A stretch of DNA of 64,000 nucleotides from Escherichia coli (GTDB lineage Bacteria; Pseudomonadota; Gammaproteobacteria; Enterobacterales; Enterobacteriaceae), in NCBI RefSeq assembly GCF_044324785.1, contig NZ_CP172127.1, one strand, 5' to 3'. The position numbers and the translations under genes were made by a program. Of the stretch, positions 1 through 10,881 are shown piece after piece. Every line of letters begins with the position of its first letter. Position 1 is the first letter of the stretch. The notes beneath the pieces were generated by a model, which was not told the DNA's origin, did not search any database, and saw only the letters and a program-made list of their open reading frames with translations.

Positions 1-195
1 AGTGAAGAATCCATTCGTTATATCAAAGACTTGTCACATGGAATGCAGCGCATAGAAATTCGTTGCGGTAACTGTGATGCCCATCTGGGGCATGTCTTCC
101 CCGACGGGCCGCAGCCAACGGGCGAACGTTATTGTGTTAACTCTGCCTCTTTACGCTTTACCGATGGCGAAAACGGCGAAGAAATCAACGGTTGA
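1..195 (+). CDS. msrB: Peptide methionine sulfoxide reductase MsrB, C-terminal fragment (gene begins upstream of window)
   Basis: Frame-1 reading from position 1 to TGA at 193-195; translation ...[47 protein letters not shown] matches the MsrB C-terminus with the CxxC zinc motif. Confidence 0.85.
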
Positions 196-236
196 AAAAA
201 CGATTCAGCAACTTATTCCACAGGAGCGGAAAAATT

Positions 237-509
237 ATGAATCTTGATGACATTATCAACAGCATGACGCCTGAGGTATACCAGCGTTTGTCAACAGCCG
301 TTGAACTGGGTAAGTGGCCAGATGGCGTTGCGCTGACCGAGGAACAAAAAGAGAACTGCCTGCAACTGGTGATGCTGTGGCAAGCCCGCCATAATACCGA
401 AGCTCAGCATATGACAATTGACACAAATGGTCAGATGGTTATGAAGAGCAAACAACAGTTAAAAGAAGATTTTGGTATCTCAGCAAAGCCTATTGCCATG
501 TTTAAGTAA
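237..509 (+). CDS. yeaC: DUF1315-family protein YeaC (90 aa)
   Basis: ORF 192..509 in the track; start moved to ATG 237 (MNLDDIINSMTPEVYQRL...), preceded by AGGAG at 222-226; position downstream of msrB as in E. coli. Confidence 0.8.
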   Translation: MNLDDIINSMTPEVYQRLSTAVELGKWPDGVALTEEQKENCLQLVMLWQARHNTEAQHMTIDTNGQMVMKSKQQLKEDFGISAKPIAMFK

Positions 510-878
510 GTGGTTTATCCCCTTTTTGCCGCGATTATAAAGGGGATATCCAACAATAACCCCACGACTCATCTCAATTATCTCGTCACGACCAGGCAAA
601 GCCCCAGCCCGGTCTCTTGCAGTCGCGTTCACGCCTGAATGACTTCTCCTGAACTTAAGTCTCAGACCTATTTGGCCGGTAATCCCTCTCAAATTTGCTC
701 ATTTTGCGTTCCGCCTTCCATCAACCTGTAACAGATCCAGCCATTTTCTGCGTAATTGTGATCTCAGTTGTAAAACGCAGATCATTATCTGTGTTTTGCA
801 GATTTAATGTTGACCTCAAAAATCATGTGGGTAAGTATGATGACCATCTAAGCAAAACAAAACACAGAGGATGACGCA

Positions 879-1955
879 ATGAAAGCACTGGCTCGGTTTG
901 GCAAAGCCTTTGGCGGCTACAAGATGATCGATGTGCCACAACCCATTTGTGGCCCGGAAGATGTAGTGATTGAAATTAAAGCCGCGGCAATCTGCGGCGC
1001 AGACATGAAGCACTACAATGTCGATAGCGGTTCTGATGAGTTTAACTCTATCCGCGGCCATGAGTTCGCAGGTTGTATTACGCAGGTTGGTGAAAAAGTC
1101 AAAGACTGGAAAGTGGGGCAACGCGTCGTGTCGGATAACAGCGGTCACGTCTGCGGCGTTTGTCCGGCCTGTGAACAAGGTGATTTTCTGTGTTGTACAG
1201 AAAAAGTAAACCTTGGTCTGGATAACAATACCTGGGGCGGTGGTTTTTCCAAATATTGTCTGGTTCCTGGCGAAATTCTCAAAATTCATCGTCATGCGTT
1301 GTGGGAAATCCCTGATGGTGTTGATTATGAGGACGCAGCCGTACTTGACCCTATCTGTAATGCCTACAAATCCATCGCGCAGCAATCGAAATTCCTTCCT
1401 GGTCAGGATGTGGTCGTCATCGGCACTGGCCCACTCGGGCTGTTCTCCGTACAAATGGCGCGGATTATGGGGGCGGTAAATATCGTCGTCGTTGGTCTGC
1501 AAGAAGATGTGGCGGTCCGCTTTCCGGTTGCAAAAGAACTGGGTGCGACGGCTGTAGTAAATGGTTCTACCGAAGATGTGGTGGCGCGCTGCCAGCAAAT
1601 TTGTGGCAAAGACAATCTGGGACTGGTGATTGAATGCTCCGGTGCCAATATCGCACTGAAACAAGCCATCGAAATGCTCCGCCCGAACGGGGAAGTGGTA
1701 CGCGTTGGAATGGGCTTCAAACCTCTTGATTTCTCGATTAATGACATTACCGCCTGGAACAAAAGCATCATTGGGCATATGGCCTATGACTCCACCTCAT
1801 GGCGTAACGCTCTCCGGCTATTAGCCAGCGGCGCTATCAAAGTCAAACCGATGATCACGCATCGTATCGGCCTGTCGCAATGGCGCGAAGGGTTTGAAGC
1901 GATGGTCGATAAAACCGCAATCAAAGTGATCATGACTTACGACTTTGATGAATAA
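879..1955 (+). CDS. ydjL: Zn-dependent medium-chain alcohol/polyol dehydrogenase YdjL (358 aa)
   Basis: Track ORF; GHEFAG Zn-ligand motif, CGVCPACEQGDFLCC structural-Zn motif, VVVIGTGPLG Rossmann motif. Confidence 0.9.
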   Translation: MKALARFGKAFGGYKMIDVPQPICGPEDVVIEIKAAAICGADMKHYNVDSGSDEFNSIRGHEFAGCITQVGEKVKDWKVGQRVVSDNSGHVCGVCPACEQGDFLCCTEKVNLGLDNNTWGGGFSKYCLVPGEILKIHRHALWEIPDGVDYEDAAVLDPICNAYKSIAQQSKFLPGQDVVVIGTGPLGLFSVQMARIMGAVNIVVVGLQEDVAVRFPVAKELGATAVVNGSTEDVVARCQQICGKDNLGLVIECSGANIALKQAIEMLRPNGEVVRVGMGFKPLDFSINDITAWNKSIIGHMAYDSTSWRNALRLLASGAIKVKPMITHRIGLSQWREGFEAMVDKTAIKVIMTYDFDE

Positions 1956-1981
1956 CTACTCTCCTGAAGGAACGTTATCGC

Positions 1982-3361
1982 ATGGAACAGATAACAAAAC
2001 CGCATTGTGGTGCACGGCTGGATCGCTTACCGGATTGCCGCTGGCATTCGTCAATGTTTGCTATCGTCGCGTTTGGCTTGCTTGTCTGCTGGAGTAATGC
2101 CGTTGGTGGCTTGATCCTCGCGCAGCTGAAAGAGTTGGGCTGGACAGATAATTCCACCACTGCCACATTCTCAGCAATCACGACCGCCGGAATGTTTCTC
2201 GGTGCGCTGGTTGGCGGCATCATCGGTGACAAAACCGGTCGCAGAAATGCGTTCATCCTCTATGAGGCCATTCATATTGCCTCGATGGTGGTCGGTGCTT
2301 TTTCACCGAATATGGATTTCCTTATTGCCTGCCGTTTTGTGATGGGCGTTGGGCTGGGAGCTTTACTGGTGACGCTGTTTGCTGGGTTCACCGAATATAT
2401 GCCCGGTAGAAATCGCGGAACGTGGTCCAGTCGGGTTTCCTTTATTGGCAACTGGTCATATCCGCTCTGTTCATTGATTGCGATGGGACTCACGCCGCTG
2501 ATTAGTGCTGAGTGGAACTGGCGGGTACAACTGCTTATCCCTGCAATATTGTCGCTTATCGCTACGGCGCTGGCCTGGCGCTACTTTCCTGAATCCCCGC
2601 GCTGGCTGGAATCGCGCGGACGGTATCAGGAAGCCGAGAAAGTCATGCGGAGTATAGAAGAAGGCGTCATACGCCAGACGGGTAAACCTTTGCCGCCCGT
2701 GGTTATTGCTGATGACGGTAAAGCGCCACAAGCGGTGCCGTATTCAGCCTTACTGACAGGCGTATTACTGAAACGCGTGATATTAGGTTCTTGTGTGCTG
2801 ATTGCCATGAACGTTGTGCAGTACACACTAATTAACTGGTTGCCAACGATATTCATGACCCAGGGGATTAATTTAAAAGACTCGATTGTTTTAAATACCA
2901 TGAGTATGTTTGGCGCGCCATTTGGTATTTTTATTGCCATGCTGGTGATGGATAAAATTCCGCGTAAAACAATGGGTGTGGGGCTATTAATCCTGATTGC
3001 GGTGCTCGGATATATCTATTCACTGCAAACCAGTATGTTGCTCATAACGTTGATTGGTTTCTTCCTGATTACTTTCGTCTATATGTACGTTTGCTATGCC
3101 TCGGCAGTGTATGTCCCTGAAATCTGGCCGACAGAGGCCAAACTCCGTGGCTCCGGTCTGGCGAATGCGGTAGGGCGAATCAGTGGTATTGCCGCACCTT
3201 ATGCCGTTGCAGTGCTGCTCAGTAGTTATGGCGTAACGGGAGTCTTTATTCTTCTGGGGGCGGTTTCAATTATTGTCGCAATTGCTATCGCCACCATTGG
3301 AATTGAAACCAAAGGTGTCTCCGTTGAAAGTTTAAGTATTGATGCAGTAGTCAATAAATAA
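1982..3361 (+). CDS. ydjK: MFS (sugar-porter-like) transporter YdjK (459 aa)
   Basis: Track ORF; multi-span hydrophobic protein with MFS signature GDKTGRR after TM2. Confidence 0.88.
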   Translation: MEQITKPHCGARLDRLPDCRWHSSMFAIVAFGLLVCWSNAVGGLILAQLKELGWTDNSTTATFSAITTAGMFLGALVGGIIGDKTGRRNAFILYEAIHIASMVVGAFSPNMDFLIACRFVMGVGLGALLVTLFAGFTEYMPGRNRGTWSSRVSFIGNWSYPLCSLIAMGLTPLISAEWNWRVQLLIPAILSLIATALAWRYFPESPRWLESRGRYQEAEKVMRSIEEGVIRQTGKPLPPVVIADDGKAPQAVPYSALLTGVLLKRVILGSCVLIAMNVVQYTLINWLPTIFMTQGINLKDSIVLNTMSMFGAPFGIFIAMLVMDKIPRKTMGVGLLILIAVLGYIYSLQTSMLLITLIGFFLITFVYMYVCYASAVYVPEIWPTEAKLRGSGLANAVGRISGIAAPYAVAVLLSSYGVTGVFILLGAVSIIVAIAIATIGIETKGVSVESLSIDAVVNK

Positions 3362-3377
3362 TACTGGTGGATTCAAA

Positions 3378-4421
3378 ATGAAAAATTCAAAAGCAATATT
3401 GCAGGTGCCGGGCACAATGAAAATTATTTCAGCAGAAATACCTGTGCCTAAAGAAGATGAAGTTTTGATTAAAGTGGAATATGTCGGTATTTGTGGTTCA
3501 GATGTACATGGTTTTGAATCAGGCCCGTTTATTCCGCCTAAAGACCCAAATCAAGAAATTGGCCTGGGACATGAATGCGCCGGGACGGTTGTGGCTGTGG
3601 GAAGCCGTGTGCGCAAATTTAAAGCGGGGGATCGGGTAAATATCGAACCTGGCGTTCCTTGCGGTCACTGTCGTTACTGTCTGGAAGGCAAATATAACAT
3701 CTGCCCGGACGTTGATTTTATGGCGACACAACCTAACTACCGCGGCGCATTAACGCACTATCTGTGTCATCCGGAGAGCTTTACTTACAAACTGCCCGAC
3801 AATATGGACACGATGGAAGGGGCGCTGGTGGAGCCTGCCGCAGTCGGGATGCATGCCGCGATGCTGGCAGATGTTAAACCGGGTAAGAAGATAATTATTC
3901 TGGGAGCGGGTTGTATTGGTTTGATGACGTTGCAAGCGTGCAAATGCCTGGGAGCAACGGAAATTGCCGTCGTTGATGTACTGGAAAAACGTCTGGCAAT
4001 GGCGGAACAGCTTGGTGCGACAGTGGTTATTAACGGCGCAAAAGAAGACACTATTGCACGCTGTCAGCAATTTACCGAAGACATGGGCGAAGATATTGTT
4101 TTCGAAACAGCGGGTTCTGCGGTCACCGTTAAACAGGCACCTTATCTGGTAATGCGCGGCGGTAAAATTATGATTGTTGGTACTGTACCGGGCGATTCGG
4201 CAATCAATTTCCTCAAAATCAATCGCGAAGTCACTATCCAGACAGTATTCCGCTATGCCAATCGTTATCCGGTCACGATTGAAGCTATTTCCACAGGGCG
4301 ATTCGATGTGAAATCGATGGTGACACATATTTACGATTATCAGGATGTACAACAGGCATTTGAAGAGTCGGTTAACAACAAACGCGACATTATTAAAGGC
4401 GTTATTAAAATTAGCGATTAA
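3378..4421 (+). CDS. ydjJ: Zn-dependent sorbitol/threonine-dehydrogenase-like oxidoreductase YdjJ (347 aa)
   Basis: Track ORF; GICGSDVHGF, GHECAG and CGHCRYCLEGKYNIC Zn-ADH motifs. Confidence 0.9.
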   Translation: MKNSKAILQVPGTMKIISAEIPVPKEDEVLIKVEYVGICGSDVHGFESGPFIPPKDPNQEIGLGHECAGTVVAVGSRVRKFKAGDRVNIEPGVPCGHCRYCLEGKYNICPDVDFMATQPNYRGALTHYLCHPESFTYKLPDNMDTMEGALVEPAAVGMHAAMLADVKPGKKIIILGAGCIGLMTLQACKCLGATEIAVVDVLEKRLAMAEQLGATVVINGAKEDTIARCQQFTEDMGEDIVFETAGSAVTVKQAPYLVMRGGKIMIVGTVPGDSAINFLKINREVTIQTVFRYANRYPVTIEAISTGRFDVKSMVTHIYDYQDVQQAFEESVNNKRDIIKGVIKISD

Positions 4422-4441
4422 TTAATACGGGAGAACAGAAT

Positions 4442-5278
4442 ATGCTCGCAGATATCAGATATTGGGAAAACGATGCCACAAATAAACATTATGCAATTGC
4501 CCATTTTAACGTATGGAATGCAGAAATGTTGATGGGCGTTATCGACGCAGCCGAAGAAGCGAAATCACCGGTTATTATTTCTTTTGGTACAGGTTTTGTC
4601 GGCAACACCTCATTTGAAGATTTCTCTCACATGATGGTATCAATGGCACAAAAAGCAACGGTGCCGGTAATAACTCATTGGGATCATGGTCGGAGTATGG
4701 AGATTATTCATAACGCCTGGACTCATGGTATGAATTCATTAATGCGTGATGCTTCCGCGTTTGATTTCGAAGAAAATATTCGTTTAACCAAAGAGGCTGT
4801 TGATTTTTTCCATCCGCTGGGTATTCCGGTAGAGGCGGAATTAGGGCATGTCGGTAATGAAACCGTTTATGAGGAAGCTCTGGCGGGCTATCACTATACC
4901 GATCCTGACCAGGCGGCTGAATTTGTTGAACGTACGGGCTGTGACTCATTGGCTGTCGCCATCGGCAACCAGCATGGGGTTTATACGTCAGAGCCACAAT
5001 TGAACTTTGAGGTCGTCAAACGCGTACGCGATGCCGTTTCTGTTCCGCTGGTTTTGCACGGTGCATCGGGGATCAGTGATGCCGACATTAAAACTGCAAT
5101 TTCGTTGGGTATCGCGAAAATCAACATTCATACGGAGCTCTGTCAGGCCGCAATGGTAACAGTGAAAGAAAACCAGGATCAGCCTTTCCTGCATTTAGAA
5201 CGTGAAGTACGTAAAGCTGTAAAAGAACGGGCATTGGAAAAAATTAAACTGTTCGGTTCTGATGGCAAAGCGGAATAA
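4442..5278 (+). CDS. ydjI: Class II (metal-dependent) fructose-bisphosphate-aldolase-family aldolase YdjI (278 aa)
   Basis: Track ORF; class II FBA/tagatose-bisphosphate aldolase fold motifs (HxDHG, HGASG). Confidence 0.88.
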   Translation: MLADIRYWENDATNKHYAIAHFNVWNAEMLMGVIDAAEEAKSPVIISFGTGFVGNTSFEDFSHMMVSMAQKATVPVITHWDHGRSMEIIHNAWTHGMNSLMRDASAFDFEENIRLTKEAVDFFHPLGIPVEAELGHVGNETVYEEALAGYHYTDPDQAAEFVERTGCDSLAVAIGNQHGVYTSEPQLNFEVVKRVRDAVSVPLVLHGASGISDADIKTAISLGIAKINIHTELCQAAMVTVKENQDQPFLHLEREVRKAVKERALEKIKLFGSDGKAE

Positions 5279-5282
5279 TGAT

Positions 5283-6230
5283 ATGGATAATCTCGACGTT
5301 ATTTGTATAGGTGCCGCTATTGTTGATATTCCATTGCAACCGGTCAGTAAAAATATCTTTGATGTGGATTCTTATCCTCTTGAAAGAATCGCAATGACCA
5401 CCGGGGGTGATGCAATAAATGAAGCAACAATTATTTCTCGTCTGGGCCATCGCACAGCATTAATGAGTCGTATTGGTAAAGATGCCGCCGGGCAATTTAT
5501 TCTCGACCATTGCCGCAAAGAGAATATTGATATTCAAAACCTGAAGCAGGACGTCAGCATAGATACCTCTATTAACGTTGGACTGGTGACGGAGGATGGC
5601 GAGCGGACGTTTGTTACAAACCGTAACGGCAGTCTGTGGAAATTGAATATTGACGATGTTGATTTTTCGCGGTTTTCTCAGGCGAAATTATTATCACTGG
5701 CCAGTATTTTCAACAGTCCTCTATTGGATGGTAAAGCGCTAACAGAAATTTTTACGCAAGCTAAAGCCCGGCAGATGATTATCTGTGCCGATATGATCAA
5801 ACCGCGGTTGAATGAAACGCTGGATGATATTTGCGAAGCATTGAGTTATGTCGATTATCTGTTTCCTAATTTTGCCGAGGCAAAATTACTCACCGGGAAA
5901 GAGACACTGGATGAAATTGCTGACTGCTTTCTTGCGTGCGGCGTAAAAACGGTGGTGATTAAAACGGGTAAAGACGGCTGCTTTATCAAGCGTGGTGACA
6001 TGACGATGAAGGTGCCGGCGGTCGCAGGAATAACCGCCATCGACACTATTGGCGCAGGCGATAACTTTGCTTCTGGCTTTATAGCGGCTCTGTTAGAAGG
6101 CAAAAATCTGCGTGAATGCGCACGCTTTGCCAATGCAACGGCTGCTATTTCGGTTTTAAGCGTCGGTGCCACCACCGGTGTAAAAAACAGAAAGCTGGTC
6201 GAACAATTGCTGGAAGAATACGAAGGATAA
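5283..6230 (+). CDS. ydjH: PfkB/ribokinase-family sugar kinase YdjH (315 aa)
   Basis: Track ORF 5262..6230; start placed at ATG 5283 (MDNLDVICIGAAIVD...); C-terminal GAGD anion-hole motif typical of PfkB kinases. Confidence 0.88.
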   Translation: MDNLDVICIGAAIVDIPLQPVSKNIFDVDSYPLERIAMTTGGDAINEATIISRLGHRTALMSRIGKDAAGQFILDHCRKENIDIQNLKQDVSIDTSINVGLVTEDGERTFVTNRNGSLWKLNIDDVDFSRFSQAKLLSLASIFNSPLLDGKALTEIFTQAKARQMIICADMIKPRLNETLDDICEALSYVDYLFPNFAEAKLLTGKETLDEIADCFLACGVKTVVIKTGKDGCFIKRGDMTMKVPAVAGITAIDTIGAGDNFASGFIAALLEGKNLRECARFANATAAISVLSVGATTGVKNRKLVEQLLEEYEG

Positions 6231-6239
6231 TGAAGGCAA

Positions 6240-7220
6240 ATGAAAAAGATACCTTTAGGCACAACGGATATAACGCTTTCGCGAATGGGGTTGGGGACAT
6301 GGGCCATTGGCGGCGGTCCTGCATGGAATGGCGATCTCGATCGGCAAATATGTATTGATACGATTCTTGAAGCCCATCGTTGCGGCATTAACCTGATTGA
6401 TACTGCGCCAGGATATAACTTTGGCAATAGTGAAGTTATCGTCGGTCAGGCGTTAAAAAAACTGCCCCGTGAACAGGTTGTAGTAGAAACCAAATGCGGC
6501 ATTGTCTGGGAACGAAAAGGGAGTTTATTCAACAAAGTTGGCGATCGGCAGTTGTATAAAAACCTTTCCCCGGAATCTATCCGCGAAGAGGTAGAAGCCA
6601 GCTTGCAACGTCTGGGTATTGATTACATCGATATCTACATGACGCACTGGCAGTCGGTGCCGCCATTTTTTACGCCGATCGCTGAAACTGTCGCAGTGCT
6701 CAATGAGTTAAAGGCCGAAGGGAAAATTCGCGCTATCGGCGCTGCTAACGTCGATGCTGACCATATCCGCGAGTATCTGCAATATGGTGAACTGGATATT
6801 ATTCAGGCGAAATACAGTATCCTCGACCGGGCAATGGAAAGCGAACTGCTGCCGCTATGTCGTGATAATGGCATTGTGGTTCAGGTTTATTCCCCGCTAG
6901 AGCAGGGATTGTTGACCGGTACCATCACTCGTGATTACGTTCCGGGCGGCGCTCGGGCAAATAAAGTCTGGTTCCAGCGTGAAAACATGCTGAAAGTGAT
7001 TGATATGCTTGAACAGTGGCAGCCACTCTGTGCTCGTTATCAGTGCACAATTCCCACTCTGGCACTGGCGTGGATATTAAAACAGAGTGATTTAATCTCC
7101 ATTCTTAGTGGGGCTACTGCACCGGAACAGGTACGCGAAAATGTCGCGGCATTGAATATCAACTTATCGGATGCAGACGCAACATTGATGAGGGAAATGG
7201 CAGAGGCCCTGGAGCGTTAA
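6240..7220 (+). CDS. ydjG: Aldo-keto reductase YdjG (326 aa)
   Basis: Track ORF; AKR family signature (LIDTAPGY, catalytic tetrad context). Confidence 0.88.
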   Translation: MKKIPLGTTDITLSRMGLGTWAIGGGPAWNGDLDRQICIDTILEAHRCGINLIDTAPGYNFGNSEVIVGQALKKLPREQVVVETKCGIVWERKGSLFNKVGDRQLYKNLSPESIREEVEASLQRLGIDYIDIYMTHWQSVPPFFTPIAETVAVLNELKAEGKIRAIGAANVDADHIREYLQYGELDIIQAKYSILDRAMESELLPLCRDNGIVVQVYSPLEQGLLTGTITRDYVPGGARANKVWFQRENMLKVIDMLEQWQPLCARYQCTIPTLALAWILKQSDLISILSGATAPEQVRENVAALNINLSDADATLMREMAEALER

Positions 7221-7356
7221 ATACTCAACACGATTCACCTCTGTTTCTGTGAAAACTGTGATGAAAATCTGTGATTCAAACAGGTTATTTTGAAAGTAAA
7301 CATCGGTTATGCGATAATCGCGCTAATGTGATGTAAAAAGATACAGGGGTGTAATC

Positions 7357-8115
7357 GTGGCGGCAAAAGACAGGATTCAGGCAATTAAGCAAATGGTTGC
7401 CAACGATAAAAAGGTGACAGTCTCAAATTTGAGTGGGATTTTTCAAGTAACCGAAGAAACCATTCGCCGCGATCTTGAGAAGCTGGAAGATGAAGGCTTT
7501 TTGACCAGAACCTATGGTGGTGCTGTTTTAAATACAGCGATGTTGACGGAGAATATCCATTTTTATAAGCGCGCTTCATCGTTTTATGAAGAGAAGCAGC
7601 TTATTGCACGCAAGGCACTACCCTTTATCGACAATAAAACCACTATGGCAGCCGATTCCAGTAGTACCGTTATGGAATTGCTCAAATTGTTGCAGGACCG
7701 TAGTGACCTGACGTTGCTAACCAACTCGGCGGAAGCGATTCATGTTCTGGCTCAATCAGAAATTAAAGTCGTTTCAACGGGGGGGGAACTAAACAAAAAT
7801 ACACTTTCCCTGCAAGGAAGAATTACTAAAGAGATCATCAGCCGCTACCATGTCGATATCATGGTAATGAGTTGTAAAGGTCTTGATATTAACAGCGGCG
7901 CGCTGGACTCTAACGAAGCGGAAGCTGAAATCAAAAAGACAATGATCCGTCAGGCGACAGAAGTTGCGTTATTGGTTGATCACTCTAAGTTTGATCGCAA
8001 AGCTTTTGTCCAGTTAGCTGACTTTAGTCATATTAATTACATAATAACTGATAAATCACCGGGTGCAGAGTGGATAGCATTTTGCAAAGACAATAATATC
8101 CAGCTGGTGTGGTAA
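7357..8115 (+). CDS. ydjF: DeoR-family transcriptional regulator YdjF (252 aa, GTG start)
   Basis: Track ORF; N-terminal HTH (VTVSNLSGIFQVTEETIRRDLEKLE) and C-terminal DeoR sugar-phosphate-binding domain; GTG at 7357. Confidence 0.88.
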   Translation: MAAKDRIQAIKQMVANDKKVTVSNLSGIFQVTEETIRRDLEKLEDEGFLTRTYGGAVLNTAMLTENIHFYKRASSFYEEKQLIARKALPFIDNKTTMAADSSSTVMELLKLLQDRSDLTLLTNSAEAIHVLAQSEIKVVSTGGELNKNTLSLQGRITKEIISRYHVDIMVMSCKGLDINSGALDSNEAEAEIKKTMIRQATEVALLVDHSKFDRKAFVQLADFSHINYIITDKSPGAEWIAFCKDNNIQLVW

Positions 8116-9510
8116 TTTAAGCACACGTTGTCAATATTATTTGTTCCTGCGCCTGGAAATAAAATGATGATAAAGATGCGGCAAGTGAATTTGCCGCAAT
8201 TGCTACCTTTTTAGCAAATCCGAGGCACCTAATGGAACAATATGATCAAATTGGCGCAAGACTGGACCGCTTGCCTTTGGCCCGGTTTCATTATCGTATA
8301 TTTGGTATTATAAGCTTTAGTCTGTTATTAACGGGTTTTTTGAGTTATTCAGGCAATGTTGTTTTAGCAAAGCTGGTAAGCAATGGATGGTCAAATAATT
8401 TCCTCAATGCCGCCTTTACCTCGGCATTAATGTTTGGTTATTTCATCGGCTCTCTTACCGGTGGGTTCATCGGTGATTATTTTGGGCGGCGCAGGGCTTT
8501 TCGCATAAATCTTCTCATCGTCGGTATTGCGGCAACAGGGGCCGCTTTTGTCCCTGATATGTACTGGCTCATCTTCTTTCGCTTCCTGATGGGCACAGGA
8601 ATGGGGGCGCTGATTATGGTTGGCTATGCTTCGTTTACGGAGTTTATCCCCGCGACGGTGCGTGGAAAATGGTCCGCGCGGCTCTCATTTGTCGGTAACT
8701 GGTCGCCCATGTTGTCTGCGGCGATAGGCGTGGTGGTTATCGCTTTTTTTAGTTGGCGGATAATGTTTCTGCTGGGTGGTATTGGCATACTGTTAGCCTG
8801 GTTTCTCTCAGGTAAATACTTTATTGAGTCGCCTCGATGGTTGGCGGGGAAAGGACAAATCGCAGGTGCAGAAAGCCAACTTCGTGAAGTAGAGCAGCAA
8901 ATTGAAAGAGAGAAGAGTGTTCGTTTACCCCCGCTTACTTTGAATCAGAGCAACAGCAAGGCTAACATAATCAATGGTACTTTCTGGCTGCTGTTTAAAG
9001 GGAAAATGTTACGACGTACATTAGTCGCGATTACTGTTTTAATTGCAATGAACATTTCACTTTATACCATCACCGTATGGATACCGACCATATTTGTTAA
9101 CTCCGGCATTGATGTCGATAAATCAATATTAATGACTGCTGTTATTATGATTGGTGCTCCGGTAGGAATATTTATTGCGGCATTAATTATTGATCATTTT
9201 CCTCGTCGATTATTTGGCTCCGCCTTACTTATTATTATTGCCGTGTTAGGCTATATCTATTCAATTCAGACTACAGAGTGGGCGATTTTAATCTATGGCC
9301 TGGTGATGATCTTCTTTTTATACATGTATGTTTGCTTCGCGTCGGCGGTTTATATCCCGGAGCTTTGGCCAACGCATTTACGCCTGCGCGGTTCAGGTTT
9401 CGTTAATGCCGTCGGACGGATCGTCGCGGTCTTCACGCCTTATGGCGTTGCGGCACTATTAACGCATTATGGGTCAATCACGGTGTTTATAGTGCTTGGC
9501 GTGATGTTAG

Positions 9511-10705
<1,195 letters not shown>

Positions 10706-10839
10706 TTAGTGCTCTGTGCGCTGGTTCTCTCCATTTTTGGCATCGAAACGCGGAAGGTGTCATTGGAAGAGATTTCTGAGGTGAATTAAATCTTTCGTTG
10801 ATGGCGTCAATTGCCAGAGGTACCACTGACGTGTTTTAT

Positions 10840-10874
10840 CTGGCCTACAATGGCAGTACAGAATTGTAGGCCAG
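10840..10874. terminator. Perfect 12-bp inverted repeat (CTGGCCTACAAT / ATTGTAGGCCAG, 11-nt loop) between the convergent ydjE and pncA 3' ends; probable bidirectional terminator
   Basis: Read directly from sequence; no clean U-tract on either side, so terminator function is inferred. Confidence 0.5.
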
Positions 10875-10881
10875 CATAAAA

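Follow-up and report, generated by a model that had tools for sequence, protein, structure and literature searches.

The ydjLKJIHG-ydjF locus of Escherichia coli: a probable operon for breakdown of an acidic sugar derivative, its candidate operator and its relatives in other phyla

Which compound is taken up and degraded by the products of the ydj genes of Escherichia coli, and how are these genes controlled? These questions were addressed in a 64,000-nucleotide stretch of E. coli contig NZ_CP172127.1 (assembly GCF_044324785.1), called the window below, in which eight open reading frames (ORFs) on the + strand at 879-9533 correspond to ydjL, K, J, I, H, G, F and E. Our analysis suggests that ydjLKJIHG is probably an inducible operon which, together with its own DeoR-type regulator gene ydjF, serves the uptake and breakdown of an acidic sugar derivative. 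The locus itself is already known, because RefSeq assignments, structures and literature on its gut-responsive promoter and on CRP exist: it is a catalogued part of the textbook "y-ome", some of its biochemistry has been worked out in vitro, and about four-fifths of E. coli genomes contain it. An initial annotation of this DNA had described it as a cryptic sugar-acid/polyol cluster without an established physiological substrate. The latter is still true. A published definitive substrate assignment was looked for in the literature and none was found, and a 2022 paper describes the enzymatic functions of the operon as "only partially determined" (PMC9602453).

Gene content and predicted pathway

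The seven genes of the core are the following.

879..1955, + strand: ydjL, Zn-dependent medium-chain dehydrogenase, 358 amino acids (aa), 4 substitutions relative to K-12
1982..3361, + strand: ydjK, major facilitator superfamily (MFS) transporter, 459 aa, 44% identical to YdjE
3378..4421, + strand: ydjJ, Zn-dependent dehydrogenase of the polyol/ketose-reductase type, 347 aa
4442..5278, + strand: ydjI, class II aldolase dependent on dihydroxyacetone phosphate (DHAP), 278 aa
5283..6230, + strand: ydjH, PfkB-family sugar kinase, 315 aa
6240..7220, + strand: ydjG, aldo-keto reductase, 326 aa
7357..8115, + strand: ydjF, DeoR/GlpR-family regulator, 252 aa, GTG start

The locus is flanked by msrB-yeaC on one side and pncA-ansA on the other, the same site as in E. 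coli N3 and K-12 MG1655. After excision of the IS5 element that interrupts ydjE and of one copy of its target duplication, the region was 97.86% identical to K-12 over 9801 nucleotides (nt) without gaps. The genes, their order and the yeaC-pncA site are those of K-12 ydjLKJIHG-ydjF-ydjE (b1776-b1769), and operator-like sites are present in K-12 as well; the truncation of ydjE by IS5 sets the window apart. YdjL to YdjF have the same lengths as in K-12 and differ from it by 1 to 4 residue substitutions per protein, so that seven of the eight products are full length and near identical, YdjE being truncated. The codons of ydjL-ydjF that differ from K-12 comprise 87 with synonymous changes only versus 18 non-synonymous ones. 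Together with the K-12 lengths, this indicates that the ydjL-ydjF core is intact and under purifying selection. The G+C content of the cluster was 46.8% versus 49.9% in the rest of the window, a difference too weak to argue for recent import, and this argument was dropped. A scan of positions 1-11000 against Rfam matched no known RNA family.

The spacers within ydjL-ydjG are 4 to 26 nt long, a conserved promoter with a candidate operator is found only before ydjL, and ydjF has a separate promoter-like site, a layout that would suit an operon. The literature handles ydjLKJIHG as one operon (mouse-gut sensor study; PMC8085971). The gene identities, order and operon-like packing given in the initial annotation, and its transporter, oxidoreductase, kinase and aldolase logic, were confirmed by the eight ORFs and their NCBIfam families, and the family models also supported a DeoR-type regulator and then a second MFS transporter after ydjG. 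Its spacer range of 10-27 bp came close for four of the five junctions (L-K, 26 nt; K-J, 16 nt; J-I, 20 nt; H-G, 9 nt) and failed for I-H, which is 4 nt; the G-F and F-E spacers are 136 and 116 nt. The overlap of ydjH with ydjI that it described is an artefact, because the longest ORF, from ATG 5262, had been taken; the start used in RefSeq, and that of the crystallised protein (3H49), is ATG 5283, 4 nt past the ydjI stop. Its range, 750-8231, ended one base before ydjE although its title included that gene, and it overlooked the IS5 that truncates ydjE.

Families were assigned from NCBIfam model scores relative to curated or equivalog cutoffs and from matches to Protein Data Bank (PDB) entries; structures exist for YdjI, YdjH and YdjJ. 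YdjI scored 323.7 bits with TIGR00167 (cutoff, 215.6), which places it in the class II ketose-bisphosphate aldolase family, and its match to 6OFU ("YdjI aldolase") spans residues 1-278 with a score of 624 bits. It is not an FbaA, GatY or KbaY equivalog (246 versus a cutoff of 343, 239 versus 383 and 185 versus 542 bits, respectively). YdjH is a member of the PfkB/ribokinase family and matched 3H49/3IN1 at 684 bits over residues 1-315, and the ribokinase, IolC and 1-phosphofructokinase (1-PFK) models all remained under their cutoffs. YdjL and YdjJ, both Zn-dependent medium-chain dehydrogenases, were under the Tdh, IdnD and GatD cutoffs. The PDB match of YdjJ was 5VM2 at 772 bits, with a ketose reductase and a sorbitol dehydrogenase as the next best. 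YdjG scored 628 bits with NF049922, the NADH-dependent methylglyoxal reductase equivalog, above the cutoff of 550. YdjF matched the DeoR family from end to end, with an N-terminal helix-turn-helix and a sugar-phosphate-binding domain, in agreement with its RefSeq name; over residues 1-250, the GlpR, AgaR, SrlR and FucR models gave E values of 1e-37 to 1e-50 and stayed under the specific equivalog cutoffs. Its GTG start and Shine-Dalgarno sequence are conserved in the Enterobacterales alignment.

The K-12 RefSeq product names are L-glycero-L-galacto-octuluronate kinase for YdjH and L-glycero-L-galacto-octuluronate-1-phosphate aldolase for YdjI, in vitro assignments that reportedly stem from Huddleston, Raushel and co-workers in 2019. 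In the best case, YdjI is said to cleave L-glycero-L-galacto-octuluronate-1-phosphate to DHAP and L-arabinuronate, the phosphate having been added by YdjH at what we take to be the C1 hydroxyl. In PMC9602453, both enzymes are described as favouring long-chain monosaccharides of 7 to 9 carbons with carboxylate termini, and the best in vitro substrate of YdjI, L-glycero-L-galacto-octuluronate, as having "no natural abundance".

The favoured pathway would start from a ketose or aldonate of at least six carbons with a carboxylate end, imported by YdjK. Judging by their families, YdjL, YdjJ and possibly YdjG may alter the oxidation state or stereochemistry of this compound to yield a 2-ketose with a carboxylate terminus. 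YdjH would phosphorylate the 2-ketose and YdjI would cut the ketose-1-phosphate into DHAP and an aldehyde-acid, two steps that others showed in vitro; alternatively, YdjG may reduce the aldehyde product. YdjF would act as a repressor, as most DeoR-family proteins do, and release the genes once a phosphorylated intermediate of the pathway is present, and CRP would supply catabolite control. Of the two substrate classes named in the initial annotation, sugar acid is the better guess. The word "cryptic" is only partly apt, because the ydjL promoter, which was off in culture, was activated during transit through the mouse gut, where it belonged to the two sensors that responded most consistently.

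Parts of this scheme are found in known pathways. The tagatose-bisphosphate pathways for galactitol (gatYZABCD-gatR) and N-acetylgalactosamine (agaR-kbaZ-...-kbaY) also combine a class II ketose-bisphosphate-type aldolase with a Zn-dehydrogenase and DeoR-family control. Unlike them, the ydj locus has MFS uptake, no phosphotransferase system (PTS) and no GatZ/KbaZ partner subunit, and YdjI prefers acidic ketose-1-phosphates of 7 to 9 carbons, according to PMC9602453. Similar to ydj are also the sugar-acid routes for L-idonate/5-ketogluconate (idnDOTR) and inositol (iol), in which a keto-aldonate is made by a medium-chain Zn-dehydrogenase and a keto-acid is phosphorylated by a PfkB kinase of the IolC kind before being cut by an aldolase. 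However, the scores with these models were far below their cutoffs (IdnD, 117 and 176 versus 469 bits; IolC, 141.9 versus 300 bits), and the regulator family and transporter differ from those of ydj.

The cassette in other phyla

A YdjI scan of one genome per species yielded 80 loci, onto which all eight window proteins were then mapped. YdjI identity was 91-99% in Enterobacterales and 73-87% in Lachnospiraceae, Clostridium, Blautia, Megamonas, Veillonella, Anaerococcus, Erysipelotrichaceae, Synergistaceae, Atopobiaceae and Gilliamella; cross-phylum identities were 70-86% for YdjL and 57-69% for YdjG. The order L-(K)-J-I-H-G-F was kept in about 70 of the 80 loci and in several phyla, which supports the view of ydj as a single functional module. 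Because this order is kept nearly everywhere, YdjG is better seen as a member of the pathway than as a stand-alone methylglyoxal reductase. The architectures were as follows.

Enterobacterales: L-K-J-I-H-G-F-E, 22 loci
Lachnospiraceae and others: L-epimerase-K-J-I-H-G-F-DAACS, about 28 loci
K-less forms: L-J-I-(G/H)-F, in some loci with a Liv/Urt-type ATP-binding cassette (ABC) system behind it, about 20 loci
Veillonella: (E-like)-L-K-J-I-H-G-F, 2 loci

The extra epimerase between ydjL and ydjK in Firmicutes belongs to the ribulose-phosphate 3-epimerase family and is closest to the D-allulose-6-phosphate 3-epimerase AlsE (255 bits versus a cutoff of 271). The DAACS transporter after ydjF in Firmicutes is DctA/GltP-like; locus L025 (6692-7384 and 14185-15537) is an example of the form with both genes. 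Liv/Urt-type ABC genes were found in about 12 loci, including two with ydjK and several with ydjF upstream. A slot for a second transporter, filled by YdjE, DAACS or ABC proteins, therefore recurs across phyla. The pairing of Firmicutes cassettes with transporters of carboxylate or amino-acid families (DAACS in 28 loci, ABC in about 12) independently supports an acidic substrate.

From the comparison, there is roughly an even chance that L-J-I-H-G-F plus an exchangeable transporter constitute a seven-gene, gut-associated cassette which would have passed horizontally between Proteobacteria, Firmicutes, Negativicutes and Actinobacteria of the gut together with its YdjF operator, and whose substrate would be an acidic gut carbohydrate that is abundant yet has gone unrecognised. 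No description of the YdjF operator or of this cross-phylum architecture was found in the searchable literature.

Regulatory sites

The DNA upstream of ydjL in 22 Enterobacterales contained one conserved island in otherwise unalignable sequence. The sites within it, and those inside ydjL and before ydjF, are listed here.

754..775, + strand: block with a CRP-like half-site, TTTGTGATCTnAGTTGTGAAA (TGTGA at 757-761, six bases, TTGTA)
785..805, - strand: candidate YdjF operator O1, TTATCTGTGTTTTGCAGATTT, with its palindrome core at 788-802 and 4 nt between its end and the -35 hexamer
810..838, + strand: predicted ydjL promoter, -35 TTGACC (810-815), 17-nt spacer, -10 AAGTAT (833-838)
1184..1204, - strand: candidate internal operator O2, inside ydjL at +306, TTTTCTGTGTTGTACAGAAAA
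7265..7285, + strand: operator-like site O3 of the ydjF promoter, AAATCTGTGATTCAAACAGGT, separated by 4 nt from the -35 hexamer downstream
7290..7318, + strand: ydjF promoter-like site, TTGAAA, 17 nt, TG-n-GATAAT

The block at 754-775 was conserved in 20 or more Enterobacterales, with unalignable flanks, and is likely bound by CRP; ydjLKJIHG is among the operons newly proposed to be CRP activated (PMC8085971). Within the predicted ydjL promoter, TTGAC and TAAGTAT were conserved across Enterobacterales and TTGACA occurred in the same place in Firmicutes; the promoter fell under the threshold of a sigma-70 consensus scan. In the region, the sigma-70 consensus was matched best by the ydjF promoter-like site (10 of 12 positions plus the extended -10 TG), which was also conserved, as was O3, a site with the orientation and spacing of O1.

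A matrix was trained on ydjL-upstream sites with a threshold of 8 bits, and a cut of 16 bits was used for scans. Its consensus, AAATCTTTRAAACACAGAWAA, is a 17-bp palindrome, WTCTGTG-N3-CACAGAW. Of 79 distinct loci from several phyla, 67 had a site above 8 bits before ydjL, and in Firmicutes and Atopobiaceae an O1-type 21-mer in flipped orientation stood directly upstream of TTGACA before ydjL. In 1.53 Mb of fetched loci, 146 matches reached at least 16 bits: 79 preceded ydjL, 15 fell within that gene, and the remaining 49 were mostly located after ydjF, before DAACS or ABC transporter genes, with 17 of the 28 DAACS genes having such a match at most 400 nt upstream. In the window there were only two such matches, O1 (26.3 bits, the best) and O2 (17.4 bits). 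The motif accompanied a YdjF orthologue in 59 of 68 loci that have one and occurred in none of 7 that lack it (Fisher's exact test, P = 5.8e-6), the latter being loci with room for ydjF but with none, or with only a 34-36% identical DeoR relative.

O2 is an 8+8-bp palindrome, TTTTCTGT-GTTGT-ACAGAAAA. When ydjL was divided into 352 windows of seven codons and compared in 20 Enterobacterales, the third codon positions were most conserved here (0.971 versus a mean of 0.707). The palindrome may serve YdjF as an internal operator, or it may be related to the Rho-dependent premature termination reported in ydjL, where a fusion to the 5' untranslated region/ORF rose more than 2-fold in a rho mutant.

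Position, conservation and co-occurrence with YdjF, and not the number of matches, make the palindrome most likely the YdjF operator. YdjF would bind it beside the -35 hexamers of ydjL and ydjF and at the internal ydjL site. In the literature, no studies of the YdjF regulon or operator were found, and lists class YdjF as an uncharacterised transcription factor. Two other readings of the sites were discarded: an inverted repeat at 768-801, considered as a single long operator or terminator, was split by footprinting into the CRP-like block and the 17-bp palindrome, and an arrangement of ATCTG/CAGAT half-sites as direct repeats was rejected since the palindrome holds across phyla.

The ydj locus resembles the deo and glp regulons in its DeoR/GlpR-type regulator and its several operator-like sites, among them one that lies some 400 bp further down, within ydjL, the first structural gene. 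Internal operators are found in glpD, and the deo system uses looping between sites. We know of no WTCTGTG-N3-CACAGAW palindrome in either system.

Both ydjF and the operator motif were absent from three loci of Lachnospiraceae/Clostridium (L050, L051 and L055). In L055, a sequence resembling the C terminus of an AraC-type regulator is located just upstream of ydjL, which suggests that the regulator was replaced there.

The position of ydjE and alternative explanations

The 3' part of the locus contains the following features.

8177..8198, + strand: conserved G+C-rich hairpin in the ydjF-ydjE spacer, a possible terminator (-21.2 kcal/mol, z = -3.06)
8232..9533, + strand: ydjE, truncated MFS transporter gene, in which codons 1-426 (to 9509) are native and are followed by 7 IS5-encoded codons plus a stop
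9511..10705, + strand: IS5, 1195 bp, transposase ORF at 9543-10559
10710..10789, + strand: displaced 3' remnant of ydjE, the last 26 codons and the stop

The element was identified as IS5 by its length, its terminal repeats, a 4-bp YTAR duplication and its transposase ORF, and matching elements are annotated as IS5 family transposase. The terminal inverted repeats of IS5 are GGAAGGTGCGAA(C/T)AAG, here GGAAGGTGCGAAC/TAAG, and TTAG target duplications at 9507-9510 and 10706-10709 bracket the insertion. In an alignment to the 452-aa YdjE, the last 26 residues are replaced by 7 foreign ones, and the native stop (10787-10789) is displaced by exactly 1199 nt (1195 + 4). The ydjE::IS5 junction was absent among 5426 complete E. 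coli genomes; two matches with at least 80% coverage proved to be 87%-identical plasmid IS5 ends and not the junction. The truncation is the only strain-specific news in this genome, in which the cassette otherwise appears intact and under purifying selection.

The remaining part of ydjE (8232-9510) carried 11 substitutions relative to K-12 in 426 residues, clustered at 215-258, compared with 1 to 4 per protein in YdjL-YdjF, which suggests that its recombination history differs from that of the rest of the locus. A comparison of positions 1-35000 of the window with complete E. coli genomes gave N3 as the best match (99.0-99.4%), followed by ST2747 (98.0%) and K-12 (97.9%). Because the best match was no closer, the window appears to represent a sparsely sampled lineage, thinly represented among complete Escherichia genomes.

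An orthologue of YdjE (76-94% identity) followed ydjF only in Enterobacterales, in 22 of 22 loci. Outside this order, only weaker E-like genes (35-52%) were found, in C. puniceum, Veillonella and Gilliamella. The operator motif was sought before ydjE and not found; only 2 of 81 K/E-family genes had one upstream, and neither was an Enterobacterales ydjE. The hairpin at 8177-8198 is kept in Enterobacterales, with no U-tract right after the stem. The absence of an operator site and the conserved hairpin before ydjE place this gene probably outside the core YdjF regulon.

These observations bear on the proposal that two dehydrogenases funnel two polyols into one ketose, with YdjK and YdjE as the importers, as in the Agrobacterium D-altritol/galactitol route. 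The initial annotation had drawn a branched pathway from the two transporters, and part of its basis stands: YdjE is a 44% identical paralogue of YdjK that is always present after ydjF in Enterobacterales, and the second-transporter slot recurs in other phyla. The neighbours of YdjJ, a ketose reductase and a sorbitol dehydrogenase, and the AlsE-like epimerase of Firmicutes, which points to hexulose-phosphate chemistry, also speak for polyols. On the other hand, ydjE lacks the operator motif, is separated from ydjF by the conserved hairpin and is not part of the cassette outside Enterobacterales, and untargeted metabolomics ties YdjE to the export of acetophenone and 3-phenyllactate, not of sugars. 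The preference of YdjH and YdjI for carboxylate-ended sugars of 7 to 9 carbons, cited above from PMC9602453, and the carboxylate or amino-acid families of the second transporters in Firmicutes are likewise at odds with it, and we regard a two-polyol pathway as rather unlikely. A role in stress or detoxification, with YdjG reducing methylglyoxal or other reactive aldehydes and the cluster conferring acid or osmotic tolerance, agrees with one in vitro activity and with the name and equivalog score of YdjG, with a reported increase in salt tolerance upon ydjK overexpression and with the over-representation of ydj genes in lactic-acid-resistant E. coli, yet the link to acid resistance is confounded by phylogroup, the prevalence of the cluster being uneven (96.6% in group A versus 29.9% in B1; PMC9602453). 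Across phyla, ydjG keeps a fixed place among the genes for the transporter, the two dehydrogenases, the aldolase and the kinase, which is a catabolic signature, and DeoR-type control with CRP activation fits carbon catabolism. The stress role is the most improbable of the explanations.

The locus could also be a dispensable, decaying relic that has no current function in this genome. At least 80% of an 11-kb query was present in 4220 of 5426 complete E. coli genomes, about 22% being without the locus, IS5 cuts ydjE here, insertions of this family and frameshifts affect ydjJ, ydjH and the F-E spacer elsewhere, and the premature termination reported in ydjL would add to this picture. The ydj locus is clearly dispensable in Escherichia. 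Nevertheless, the seven core genes are full length with an excess of synonymous differences, conservation extends to the regulatory sites, the promoter is switched on in the gut and the proteins are very strongly conserved across phyla, so that a functionless relic is quite improbable.

Among other E. coli strains, IS5 or ISKpn26 insertions were located in the ydjF-ydjE spacer of A10 (L002 8784-9764), at the 3' end of ydjJ in PI12 (L084 4644-5624), in ydjH of 1008S19 (L086 6011-6991) and in ydjJ of EC24, which also has a ydjH frameshift (L085 3720-4700, 6683-7616). The locus appears to have been inactivated repeatedly and independently in these strains.

Several points weigh against the operon for an acidic sugar derivative as set out here. 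The true pathway may differ, as the best in vitro substrate is without natural abundance, and the AlsE-like epimerase of Firmicutes is unexplained by an octuluronate scheme. The biochemical detail for YdjH and YdjI comes from secondary citations and database names, and protein families are the basis for the putative roles of YdjL, YdjJ and YdjG. Binding of YdjF to the motif is proposed from position, conservation and co-occurrence. O1, O2 and O3 were the only matches to TCTGTGNNNCACAGA with at most 2 mismatches in the window, but 25 of 100 shuffles reached three, a number no higher than expected by chance alone, and O3 scored less than 12 bits with the position weight matrix trained on ydjL. 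A site just upstream of the -35 hexamer would suit an activator as well, and the DeoR-family member FucR is one.

With these points considered, an inducible operon for an acidic sugar derivative is still the reading that we favour. If the cassette reading is true, the second-transporter slot and the AlsE-like epimerase would be lineage-specific extensions of the substrate range. The open question of the substrate is of some interest since the promoter fires specifically in the mammalian gut and the cassette is common to many gut anaerobes, with aldolases that are 73-87% identical. The comparative results make this question more testable by providing a candidate YdjF operator and independent genomic support for an acidic substrate, and they set ydjE probably apart from the core regulon.

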